The notes beneath the pieces were generated by a model. The model made no database searches, had not been told where the DNA came from, and saw only the letters and a program-made list of their open reading frames with translations. From assembly GCF_003334815.1 (NCBI RefSeq), contig NZ_QOWO01000015.1: a DNA stretch of 64,000 nucleotides. One strand, 5' to 3'. The number at the start of each line of letters is the position of its first letter. The stretch's first letter is position 1. The translations under genes were made by a program, and so were the position numbers. Shown one piece after another: positions 54,360 to 59,647 of this stretch. This DNA is from Escherichia coli. GTDB lineage: Bacteria > Pseudomonadota > Gammaproteobacteria > Enterobacterales > Enterobacteriaceae.

Positions 54360-55406
54360 TTAACGTCCTGCTTTCAGCTTCTGATAATACTCTTCATAAA
54401 TGCTGCTGGCTGCGCCAACGTCATTCTGCCATTCGCCATTTTTAATGGTTTCAGCATCCGGGTAGAGTGTTTTATCGTTCGCCACTTCTGGACTTAACAG
54501 CTTACGCGCCGCAAGGTTTGGCGTTGGATAACCGATAGTTTCAGCAACCTGTTTTGCCACATCCGGGCGCAGCAGGAAGTTGATCAATTTCAGCGCGCCT
54601 TCTTTGTTTTTGGCATTTGCCGGGATCGCCAGGCTGTCCATCCAGAAAATGCCGCCTTCTTTCGGCCACACCACGTCAATTGGCGTACCCGCCTGGCGTG
54701 CAACGAAAGCAGAACCGTTCCAGATCATGCCGAGGTTAACTTCGCCTTCCATGTACGGGTTCGCCGGGTTATCGGAGTTAAAGGCTGCCACGTTTGGCAT
54801 CAGTTTTTTCAGCTCGTTATATGCAGCTTCAATCTCTTTCGGATCGGTGGTGTTACCGGAGTAGCCCAGCTTACGCAGCGCCATCTGGAACACTTCACGG
54901 GCATCGTCGGTCAACAGCAGGCTGCCTTTGTACTCTGGCTTCCACAGATCGGCCCAGCTGGTGACAGATTTCGGATCCACCGCATCACCGTTAACACCAA
55001 TCGCCGTCGCACCCCAGATATACGGAATGGAGTAGTCGTTATTCGGGTCAAAAGGCTTGTTGAGCATGTCTGGATCGAGATTGCTGAAGTTTGTTAACTT
55101 CGACTTGTCGATCTTCTGGATCATCCCTTCTTTACGCATTTTATCAACGTAATAGGTTGAAGGAACCACCAGATCATAGGCACCGTCTTTGTATGTTTTC
55201 AGCTTGGCGTACATGGTTTCGTTCGACTCGTAAGTCGAATAGATAACCTTAATACCGGTTTCTTTGGTGAACTGTTCAAGCAGTCCTGGCGGCACGTACT
55301 CGGTCCAGTTGTAGAAATACAGCGTGTTGTTGTCATCGGCGTGAGCGGCGCTCATGCCCAGTGCCAGAGCACCCGCCGCGAGCAGGTGGCGTGACCATTT
55401 TTTCAT
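54360..55406 (-). CDS. potD: Spermidine/putrescine periplasmic binding protein PotD, 348 aa
   Basis: 348-aa ORF with signal peptide MKKWSRHLLAAGALALGMSAAHA. Confidence 0.95.
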   Translation of the reverse strand: MKKWSRHLLAAGALALGMSAAHADDNNTLYFYNWTEYVPPGLLEQFTKETGIKVIYSTYESNETMYAKLKTYKDGAYDLVVPSTYYVDKMRKEGMIQKIDKSKLTNFSNLDPDMLNKPFDPNNDYSIPYIWGATAIGVNGDAVDPKSVTSWADLWKPEYKGSLLLTDDAREVFQMALRKLGYSGNTTDPKEIEAAYNELKKLMPNVAAFNSDNPANPYMEGEVNLGMIWNGSAFVARQAGTPIDVVWPKEGGIFWMDSLAIPANAKNKEGALKLINFLLRPDVAKQVAETIGYPTPNLAARKLLSPEVANDKTLYPDAETIKNGEWQNDVGAASSIYEEYYQKLKAGR

Positions 55407-56197
55407 TTAACGTCCCCTGTGTTACCTTTCGTTTTATCACGAGCAATAAGCTGGCTGGCAATAACCATCACCAGCGACAGCACCAGTAATATGGTTGCCA
55501 GCGCGTTAACTTCCGGCGATACGCCGACTTTGACCATCGAATAAATTTTTAACGGCAGAATTTCATAACTTGGTCCGGTGACGAACGAAGAAACTACCAC
55601 ATCGTCCATCGACAGGGTAAAGCTTAACACCCAGCCCGCCGCCACCGCTGGCATTGCCAGTGGCAGAATGATTTTTCGCAGAATGGTAAATTCGCTGGCA
55701 CCGAGATCTTTCGCCGCTTCCAGCATTCGCACGTCAAAACCTTTCAGGCGCGAATACACCGTCACCACCACAAATGGCAGGCAGAAGGTGATATGCGAGA
55801 ACAGCAGCGACCAGAAGCCAAGCTGAATACCCAGCAGCATAAACAGCACCAGCAGCGAAATCGCCATCACGATATCTGGTGACATCATCACCACAAACAG
55901 CATTCCGCTAACGAACGGCTTACCACGAAAGCGATAACGGTACAGCGCAACTGCCGTCAGTGAACCGATAAGCGTAGCAAACGTCGCCGAAAACACCGCC
56001 ATTGTTAGTGAATGCTGCGCTGCCTGTAACAGGCTGTCGTTGTTCATCAGCAGGCTATACCATTTGGTGGTAAAACCCTGCCAGTTGATGCCAAAGCGCG
56101 AGCTGTTAAAGGAGTTCACAATCAAAATAATGATTGGGATATACAGGTACGCGTAGATAGCGGTCATAAAACCGCCGCGAAGCAGTCGACCGATCAT
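55403..56197 (-). CDS. potC: Spermidine/putrescine ABC permease PotC, 264 aa
   Basis: 264-aa membrane ORF with ABC permease EAA-like loop (MLEAAKDLGASEFTILRKIILPLAMP). Confidence 0.95.
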   Translation of the reverse strand: MIGRLLRGGFMTAIYAYLYIPIIILIVNSFNSSRFGINWQGFTTKWYSLLMNNDSLLQAAQHSLTMAVFSATFATLIGSLTAVALYRYRFRGKPFVSGMLFVVMMSPDIVMAISLLVLFMLLGIQLGFWSLLFSHITFCLPFVVVTVYSRLKGFDVRMLEAAKDLGASEFTILRKIILPLAMPAVAAGWVLSFTLSMDDVVVSSFVTGPSYEILPLKIYSMVKVGVSPEVNALATILLVLSLVMVIASQLIARDKTKGNTGDVK

Positions 56198-57021
56198 TCG
56201 AGTTCCACCTTCTTATTCAGCAAACGAGAAGCGCGCCAGTAAACCAGCAACATCAGGCCCATTACGATAGTCAGCGTAATGCTGGTAGCTGCACCAAACG
56301 GCCAGTCACGAATATTAAGGAACTGGACCTTGATGACGTTACCGATCAGCAGGTTTTTCGCACCGCCCATCAGGTCGGATACATAGAACAGGCCCATCGC
56401 TGGCAGCATCACCAGCAGACATCCGGCAATAATTCCCGGCATCGTCAGTGGAATAATGATACGGATAAAAGTCTGTAACTTGCTGGCACCGAGATCGCGC
56501 GCCGCCTCAAGCAACGGCTTATCCAGTTTTTCGATACTGGAGTACAGCGGCATCACCATAAACGGCAGCAGAATGTAAACCAGACCGATAATCACCGCAC
56601 TGGGCGTGAACATGATACGGATTGGTGTGTCGATAACGCCCAGCCAGAGCAAAAACTCGTTGAGATAGCCTTTGGTGCTGAGGAAAATTTTCAGCCCGTA
56701 GATACGAATTAATGAGTTGGTCCAGAACGGAACAATCAGCAGAAACAGCAGCAGCGGACGCACCTTGTGTGGCAACTTCGCCAGAAACCAGGCAAACGGG
56801 TAGCCCAGCACCAGGCAGGCGAGGGTGGCGATCAGCGCCATATTCAGCGAGTGCAATAGCACTTCAAAATAGAGCGGATCGAGCAGACGCGTGTAGTTAT
56901 CCAGCGTAAAGACCATTTTGACAAAACTGGCGTCGTCGCGGGTCAAAAAGCTGGTGCCAATGATCATCAGGTTGGGCAGAAAGACAAACAACACAAGCCA
57001 ACCGACAATAGTGACAATCAC
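56194..57021 (-). CDS. potB: Spermidine/putrescine ABC permease PotB, 275 aa from GTG 57021 (285 aa if ATG 57051 is used)
   Basis: ORF-track frame 56194..57051; ABC permease motif LEAARDLGASKLQTFIRIIIPLTMP; start choice follows the 275-aa length I recall. Confidence 0.88.
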   Translation of the reverse strand: MIVTIVGWLVLFVFLPNLMIIGTSFLTRDDASFVKMVFTLDNYTRLLDPLYFEVLLHSLNMALIATLACLVLGYPFAWFLAKLPHKVRPLLLFLLIVPFWTNSLIRIYGLKIFLSTKGYLNEFLLWLGVIDTPIRIMFTPSAVIIGLVYILLPFMVMPLYSSIEKLDKPLLEAARDLGASKLQTFIRIIIPLTMPGIIAGCLLVMLPAMGLFYVSDLMGGAKNLLIGNVIKVQFLNIRDWPFGAATSITLTIVMGLMLLVYWRASRLLNKKVELE

Positions 57022-57034
57022 TACATTCTGGAAC

Positions 57035-58171
57035 TTACTTGTGTTCTTCATCAGCCAGTACGACCTCCCAGCTTTCTACCCAATTAATGGCCATTTTTTG
57101 GTCGAGAGAGTGGTCAAAGTCAGGATCGTCTTCATTGAAGAATTCGCTGACCATCACCATCTTGCCATTTTCCAGTTCAACAACCGACTCCAGCGTCATG
57201 CCTTTGTAGTTACGCTCGCGAACGTAACCAATCAGCCCTTCAGCGTGGTTGTCGTCGTTAATCTCTTCAACACGTAAGTCTTCCGGGCGCAGCAGAACAT
57301 GCAGTTTTTGCCCCGGTTCAACGGCGAAGTTAACGTAGATATTACATTCGCGGCCTTCAACGTTGGCGCGTACGCGCTGCTCGTCTAGACGTTCGATGAC
57401 AGTGGCGTTAAACATATTGATTTCGCCAATGAAGCCGGCAACAAACAGGTTTTTCGGCTCTTCGTAGATTTCACGCGGCGTGCCGTCTTGCTCAATGCGA
57501 CCATCGCGCATCACCACAATCCTGTCTGACATGGTGAGTGCTTCTTCCTGGTCGTGAGTCACAAAGACGAATGTAATGCCAAGCTTACGCTGTAACGCTT
57601 TCAGCTCGTTCTGCATTTGCTTACGCAGTTTGTAATCCAGCGCTGAGAGCGACTCATCCAGCAACAACAGACGAGGCTTGTTAACCACCGCGCGAGCAAT
57701 GGCGACGCGTTGCTGTTGACCACCAGAGAGCTGATGCGGTTTGCGTTGAGCGAAGGTTTCCAACTGCACCATCCGCAGGGCTTCCATCACGCGGGGCGTA
57801 ATTTCAGCAGCGGGGGTTTTTTGCATGCGCAACCCAAAGGCCACATTTTCGAACACGGTCATGTGGGGGAAAAGTGCGTAGCTTTGGAAAACAGTGTTCA
57901 CATAGCGGTTTTCCGCCGGAACGTGGGTGATGTCCTCGTTATCCAGCATGATGCGTCCGGAATCAACAGTTTCCAGACCTGCAATCAGGCGAAGAACGGT
58001 TGTTTTACCGCAGCCAGAAGGGCCAAGCAGCGTGAGGAACTCGCCATTGTTGATAGTCAGATCCAGCTGGGGAATGACCTCTTTACCATCAAAGCATTTG
58101 CGAATTCCCGCCAATTGCACCAGCGGTGAAAGCGAACTCGGTTGTTTATTCAATTTTTTACTCTGTCCCAT
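57035..58171 (-). CDS. potA: Spermidine/putrescine ABC ATPase PotA, 378 aa
   Basis: 378-aa ORF with Walker [10 protein letters not shown], signature [14 protein letters not shown] and Walker B LLLLDE. Confidence 0.96.
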
Positions 58172-58420
58172 GTAAACGCAACGGATGGCTTACCGATGCG
58201 GGGTTTGTGGTTAACCACCTTGGTGACTCTTAATGAGGGCGGTAATTCTACGGCAAACCGCTTGAATCGCCAATCTTTGTTGTGAATTACTGGCTTAGCT
58301 TTATATTCATTAAGGTAATGCTGATAAATATTCCCGCTTGCAGGGGTAAAAGTGACCTGACGCAATATTTGTCTTTTCTTGCTTCTTAATAATGTTGTCA
58401 CAAAAAGTGAGGGTGACTAC

Positions 58421-59647
58421 ATGGATAAACTACTTGAGCGATTTTTGAACTACGTGTCTCTGGATACCCAATCAAAAGCAGGGGTGAGACAGGTTCCCAG
58501 CACGGAAGGCCAATGGAAGTTATTGCATCTGCTGAAAGAGCAGCTCGAAGAGATGGGGCTTATCAATGTGACCTTAAGTGAGAAGGGCACTTTGATGGCG
58601 ACGTTACCGGCTAACGTCCCTGGCGATATCCCGGCGATTGGCTTTATTTCTCATGTGGATACCTCACCGGATTGCAGCGGCAAAAATGTGAATCCGCAAA
58701 TTGTTGAAAACTATCGCGGTGGCGATATTGCGCTGGGTATCGGCGATGAAGTTTTATCACCGGTTATGTTCCCGGTGCTGCATCAGCTACTGGGTCAGAC
58801 GCTGATTACCACCGATGGTAAAACCTTGTTAGGTGCCGATGACAAAGCAGGTATTGCAGAAATCATGACCGCGCTGGCGGTATTGCAACAGAAAAAAATT
58901 CCGCATGGTGATATTCGCGTCGCCTTTACCCCGGATGAAGAAGTGGGCAAAGGGGCGAAACATTTTGATGTTGACGCCTTCGATGCCCGCTGGGCTTACA
59001 CTGTTGATGGTGGTGGCGTAGGCGAACTGGAGTTTGAAAACTTCAACGCCGCGTCGGTCAATATCAAAATTGTCGGTAACAATGTTCATCCGGGCACGGC
59101 GAAAGGAGTGATGGTAAATGCGCTGTCGCTGGCGGCACGTATTCATGCGGAAGTTCCGGCGGATGAAAGCCCGGAAATGACAGAAGGCTATGAAGGTTTC
59201 TATCATCTGGCGAGCATGAAAGGCACCGTTGAACGGGCCGATATGCACTACATCATCCGTGATTTCGACCGTAAACAGTTTGAAGCGCGTAAACGTAAAA
59301 TGATGGAGATCGCCAAAAAAGTGGGCAAAGGGTTACATCCTGATTGCTACATTGAACTGGTGATTGAAGACAGTTACTACAATATGCGCGAGAAAGTGGT
59401 TGAGCATCCGCATATTCTCGATATCGCCCAGCAGGCGATGCGCGATTGCGATATTGAACCGGAACTGAAACCGATCCGCGGTGGTACCGACGGCGCGCAG
59501 TTGTCGTTTATGGGATTACCGTGCCCGAACCTGTTCACTGGCGGTTACAACTATCATGGTAAGCATGAGTTTGTGACTCTGGAAGGTATGGAAAAAGCGG
59601 TGCAGGTGATCGTCCGTATTGCCGAGTTAACGGCGCAACGGAAGTAA
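58421..59647 (+). CDS. pepT: Tripeptide aminopeptidase PepT, 408 aa
   Basis: ORF-track frame 58379..59647; ATG 58421 gives [21 protein letters not shown]; M20 metallopeptidase fold. Confidence 0.93.

Follow-up and report, generated by a model that had tools for sequence, protein, structure and literature searches.

Where translation of potB begins is the question raised by the potA/potB junction of the Escherichia coli potABCD operon. The junction lies on the minus strand of the window, the 64,000-nucleotide stretch of DNA analysed here. The potB frame offers an ATG and, 10 codons downstream, a GTG. An earlier note on this DNA considered the choice between them ambiguous. Two candidates do exist, and public annotation is divided between them; however, the start is not really ambiguous, as all of the evidence favors the ATG. 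potB is almost certainly translated from ATG 57051 and not from GTG 57021. This conclusion rests on initiation profiling by tetracycline- and retapamulin-type methods (TetRP and Ribo-RET), cryo-EM work on the native operon, the strength of the Shine-Dalgarno (SD) sequence, the DNA of 74 potB loci, the variation of codons 6-10, and homologous proteins together with the family profile NF007044.

Start codon geometry at the potA/potB junction

Across the junction, the minus strand reads ...GCTGGGAGGTCGTACTGGCTG ATG AAG AAC ACA AGT AAG TTC CAG AAT GTA GTG ATT GTC... Written out codon by codon, the strand runs GCT GGG AGG TCG TAC TGG CTG ATG AAG AAC ACA... and, from the GTG, GTG ATT GTC ACT... The two candidate starts (ATG 57051-57049 and GTG 57021-57019) share one frame and yield proteins of 285 and 275 residues, respectively. 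potA ends in ...GAA CAC AAG TAA, with its stop codon at 57037-57035. The ATG form of potB therefore overlaps potA by 17 nt, and the GTG form is separated from the potA stop by a gap of 13 nt (57034-57022). The numbers in the earlier note (two in-frame starts, both protein lengths, the overlap, and the gap) all match the sequence. When the potB frame was scanned from the preceding in-frame stop to GTG 57021, no third ATG, GTG, or TTG was found. ATG 57051 and GTG 57021 are the sole candidate potB starts 5' of the first membrane helix.

Across the junction, the window matches K-12-lineage E. coli chromosomes with 100% identity, and the potA/potB region was found in every complete E. coli genome searched (5,426/5,426). 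Open reading frames and annotations confirmed the operon order potA-potB-potC-potD (Table 1). Overlaps of 4 nt occur on the minus strand at potB/potC (56194-56197) and at potC/potD (55403-55406). Stops and starts overlap throughout this compact operon, and only the potA/potB junction, with 17 nt, departs from the 4-nt pattern.

Other start-like features were observed nearby. An out-of-frame ATG-TAG lies directly 5' of the GTG (57021-57026, minus strand) and shares its final base with the first position of the GTG. This start-stop pair has no SD and is probably due to chance. In the case of pepT (58379-59647, plus strand), the list of open reading frames begins at a TTG (422 residues), and annotated PepT has 408 residues and starts at an internal ATG (MDKLLERF...). 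The TTG looks like an artefact of open reading frame listing, not a second ambiguous start.

Table 1. Features of the potA/potB junction and flanking genes in the window.
Feature	Position	Strand	Evidence
potB CDS, long form, 285 aa plus stop	56194..57051	-	ORF; PDB 8Y5F chain B; NF007044; WP_000799401.1
ATG, functional potB start (almost certain)	57049..57051	-	TetRP; Ribo-RET; kept in 74/74 loci
potB Shine-Dalgarno GGGAGGU	57063..57069	-	anti-SD duplex; motif and spacing kept in most of the 74 loci
potA 3' end/potB codons 1-6 overlap, 17 nt	57035..57051	-	sequence and ORFs; comparable loci
potB codons 2-10 (KNTSKFQNV), short basic N-terminal tail before TM1	57022..57048	-	homologs; codon variation; family score; 8Y5G chain B
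GTG, start in NC_000913.3, read here as internal codon Val11	57019..57021	-	profiling; SD; codon conservation
potA, ATPase subunit, upstream gene of the operon, 378 aa	57035..58171	-	ORF list; annotations
potC, 4-nt overlap with potB stop	55403..56197	-	ORF list; annotations

PotB annotation in public databases

Both PotB lengths are present in public protein collections. The 275-residue PotB named in the earlier note is real. It is the product of b1125 in the curated K-12 record NC_000913.3 (NP_415643.3; 828 nt, GTG start), and UniProt P0AFK4 is presumably of the same length, 275 residues. Genomes annotated with PGAP, including a K-12 derivative and E. coli W, carry an 858-nt gene with an ATG start that encodes 285 residues (WP_000799401.1). 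The ATG form of 285 residues is also used by NCBIfam NF007044 and by PDB entries 8Y5F, 8Y5H, and 8ZX1. The shorter protein (e.g., AAC74209.1) was found on 351 contigs and the longer on at least 1000 contigs. Of the 120 database proteins nearest in sequence, 117 begin MKNTSKFQ... and carry the TM1 motif where a long-form PotB would have it.

If the K-12 reference were right, GTG 57021 would be the only start, PotB would have 275 residues, and the open frame upstream would be a chance extension. This reading has the NC_000913.3 annotation behind it, as well as the 275-residue sequences deposited for K-12 and several Shigella genomes, and it avoids any overlap with potA. The evidence presented in the following sections makes it exceedingly improbable. 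The ambiguity of the potB start exists in databases only, and the 275-residue PotB of the K-12 reference is a historical mis-annotation. The correct start is already known; it is embodied in PGAP, NCBIfam, and the PDB and is explicit in two papers.

The relevance of this case is thus one of curation only, and no new biology is implied. The PotB of the K-12 reference record, in the copy searched, is short by 10 residues, and its residue numbering does not match that of the PDB/PGAP form. A construct based on the 275-residue annotation would miss both the conserved tail at the N-terminus and the ribosome-binding context of the native gene.

Initiation profiling

Profiling of translation initiation, one of the checks proposed in the earlier note, is available from published data by two independent methods, both applied under standard laboratory growth. 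In the TetRP study, potB (ECK1111) is listed with an ATG at -30 in the category "1. new site", not "multiple" (PMC4909307, Table S2; Nakahigashi 2016). Depths at this ATG are 114.9/116.3/72.9, versus 0/0/0 at the annotated GTG (PMC4909307). In Ribo-RET, the upstream in-frame potB start gives a strong peak and the annotated start none; the authors single out potB as the one gene with this pattern and suggest a probable mis-annotation (bioRxiv 10.1101/520783; Meydan 2019). The Ribo-RET legend places the potB start "27 nt upstream" (bioRxiv 10.1101/520783), and the start-to-start distance here is 30 nt. Because 27 nt separate the two codons and the frame has no other start, the legend was taken to use a different counting convention for the same ATG. 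Signal is thus found at the ATG only, and the lack of any initiation signal at the GTG by either method argues against the K-12 reference start.

The same data bear on the possibility that both starts are used, with the ATG giving the major 285-residue PotB and the GTG a minor or condition-specific 275-residue isoform without the N-terminal tail. The GTG is a legitimate bacterial start and is in frame. Dual sites were found for about 22 other genes in TetRP (PMC4909307), and the Ribo-RET authors allow that the annotated potB site might be active in other growth conditions (bioRxiv 10.1101/520783). However, TetRP recorded zero reads at the GTG in three samples and classed potB as a "new site" instead of "multiple", and the GTG has neither a Ribo-RET peak nor an SD. 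The use of both starts is very unlikely in light of these results and of the comparative data below. It is similarly hard to credit that GTG 57021 acts as a conditional second start, e.g., under polyamine or stress conditions outside both profiling studies. If it did, the product would be a tail-less 275-residue PotB that inserts into the membrane or assembles differently.

Neither potB, MKNTSKF, nor P0AFK4 appears in the supplements of the bacterial N-terminomics papers PMC13245402 and PMC11005335, and no peptide or Edman evidence for the PotB N-terminus was found in them. The missing peptides are unsurprising, since trypsin would release MK, NTSK, and a very hydrophobic 32-mer, which are too short or too hydrophobic for detection.

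Shine-Dalgarno sequence and local RNA features

The best anti-SD duplex 5' of the ATG is formed by GGGAGGU, at -10.9 kcal/mol, a value reached by none of 1500 random window positions (0/1500). This SD sits in the potA codons Trp-Glu-Val, 11-12 nt 5' of the ATG. Such a spacing is above the usual optimum and rather long but within the working range. The earlier note had pointed to room for a ribosome-binding site ahead of the GTG. The physical space is there, but it holds no SD-like sequence: the best duplex is only -0.9 kcal/mol, and 70% of random window positions do as well, whereas a strong SD precedes the ATG. The lack of an SD before the GTG is a further point against a start at that codon alone.

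A scan of the junction revealed no promoter- or terminator-like site between potA and potB. Likewise, no stable RNA structure masks either start, as the 90-nt fold is about as stable as that of shuffled sequence (z = -0.10). Since the junction has no masking structure, the SD embedded in potA could also act alone.

Comparison of potB loci across species

The earlier note also proposed an alignment of PotB N-termini across species. DNA was compared in addition to protein because predicted protein starts depend on gene callers. Using an 8-sequence alignment, 80 loci were collected from contigs representing one genome per species, and each was anchored on the invariant Pro26. Six of the 80 were excluded because they had been anchored on PotC (~25% identity), which left 74 PotB loci, the window included. 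They range from Escherichia albertii, Citrobacter, and Pectobacterium to Vibrio, Pasteurellaceae, Aeromonas, Marinobacter, and Desulfobacterota. Where several ATGs were possible, the one with the best SD was chosen; this choice somewhat favors the SD values of the loci and leaves the ATG and GTG counts unaffected.

The comparison showed that the ATG is conserved and the GTG is not. An in-frame ATG lies 23-43 codons 5' of Pro26, upstream of the first membrane helix, in all 74 PotB loci, which is difficult to reconcile with an upstream frame that is open by chance. In contrast, only 21 of the 74 have ATG, GTG, or TTG at the codon aligned with Val11, and it is replaced in the other 53. The codon is not kept even within Enterobacteriaceae: Superficieibacter has GTA there, Pluralibacter and Mangrovibacter have GTT, and a Klebsiella-like genome has GTC. 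All three are synonymous valine codons that are unable to initiate, a pattern that weakens the case for the GTG as an additional start. In more distant loci, the aligned codon is ATT, ATC, ACT, GCC, or others. Differences in tail length among the 74 loci all preserve the frame. Of 73 loci, 36 have the 17-nt potA/potB overlap, and 67 have one of 8-20 nt whose length is always 2 mod 3.

With a start at the GTG, codons 6-10 would fall between the two genes. Among 15 Enterobacteriaceae-like sequences, variable sites in these codons are distributed 1/1/4 over codon positions 1/2/3. When all species are counted against E. coli, they contain 24 synonymous versus 7 nonsynonymous differences, similar to codons 11-26 (58:13). 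Codons 6-10 evolve like coding sequence, and the K-12 reference reading would need the supposedly intergenic 13 nt to do so.

At the protein level, a search of 1.84 billion representatives provided 25 diverged homologs (34-58% identity). A short N-terminal tail precedes the first hydrophobic helix in all 25. These tails usually contain Lys or Arg, and a Phe is conserved where E. coli has Phe7. A protein beginning inside TM1, as the minor isoform of a dual-start gene would, has no counterpart among the 25 aligned homologs.

The DNA alignment also displays a TGGGA(G/A)GT motif at a fixed, rather long distance (~11-12 nt) from the potB ATG in Enterobacteriaceae, Vibrio, Pasteurellaceae, and Desulfobacterota. 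The potA tail 3' of this motif varies by whole codons, giving overlaps of 8, 11, 14, 17, or 20 nt. The constraint on the motif may reflect PotA function, the SD, or both, and the long SD spacing may tune the PotA:PotB ratio.

Structure and family membership

For cryo-EM of PotD-PotABC, the potabcd operon of K-12 was cloned in its native form (PMC11414716), so that translation of PotB began at its own start. Chain B of 8Y5F is identical to the long potB open reading frame over 285/285 residues. Chain 8Y5G_B comprises residues 7-279, a range deduced from the deposited chain sequence. Because it begins at residue 7, it holds residues upstream of Val11 that are present only in the long form, which points away from a GTG-only start. 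Separately, 8Y5I chain B reads MKNTTSFQN, as opposed to MKNTSKFQN in 8Y5F, 8Y5H, 8ZX1, and the window (residues 5-6; 57034-57039, minus strand). The mismatch may stem from an error in the deposition or from a variant of the N-terminal tail that was not declared.

The PotB equivalog model NF007044 (spermidine/putrescine ABC transporter permease) has 285 positions and a cut-off of 348 bits. The 285-residue form scores 555.5 bits and aligns from 1-285 to 1-285. The 275-residue form scores 539.9 bits and enters at profile position 11; the tail is thus worth 15.6 bits. The window gene thus encodes E. coli PotB itself and shows all of the family features that were tested.

A model for potB initiation

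Ribosomes are almost certainly recruited to potB by the SD GGGAGGU within the last codons of potA. Ribosomes finishing potA probably aid initiation at potB by translational coupling, which is likely given that potB starts 17 nt before the potA stop. The product is the 285-residue permease subunit PotB. Its first ~9 residues, MKNTSKFQN, include two lysines and form a short tail ahead of TM1, with a putative cytoplasmic location and role. A cytoplasmic N-terminus generally follows the positive-inside pattern, which the two tail lysines fit. In this arrangement, GTG 57021 is read as the Val11 codon inside the TM1 region.

Relation to known systems

The closest known system is PotB of the E. coli PotABCD spermidine-preferential importer (PDB 8Y5F/8Y5G/8Y5H/8Y5I/8ZX1), with which the window gene shares the same protein and the same operon order. 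The sole difference from known E. coli PotB is that NC_000913.3 annotates 10 residues fewer.

potB also belongs with the K-12 genes whose starts were re-annotated by TetRP and Ribo-RET; it is explicit in both, with the true start upstream of the annotated one. It is distinct among these re-annotations only by the zero signal at the annotated site. Dual-start genes give signal at both in-frame starts, and potB does not (GTG 0/0/0 in TetRP and no Ribo-RET peak). With no signal at all at its annotated site, potB is a simple mis-annotation and not a dual-start gene.

Finally, the junction resembles the overlapping stop/start junctions of coupled gene pairs, such as the ATGA of potB/potC and potC/potD. 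The potB start codon and its SD likewise lie within the upstream coding sequence, that of potA, and the overlap is conserved across phyla. Unlike these pairs, in which overlaps of 1 or 4 nt are common, potA and potB overlap by 17 nt, and the distance from SD to start is long (11-12 nt).
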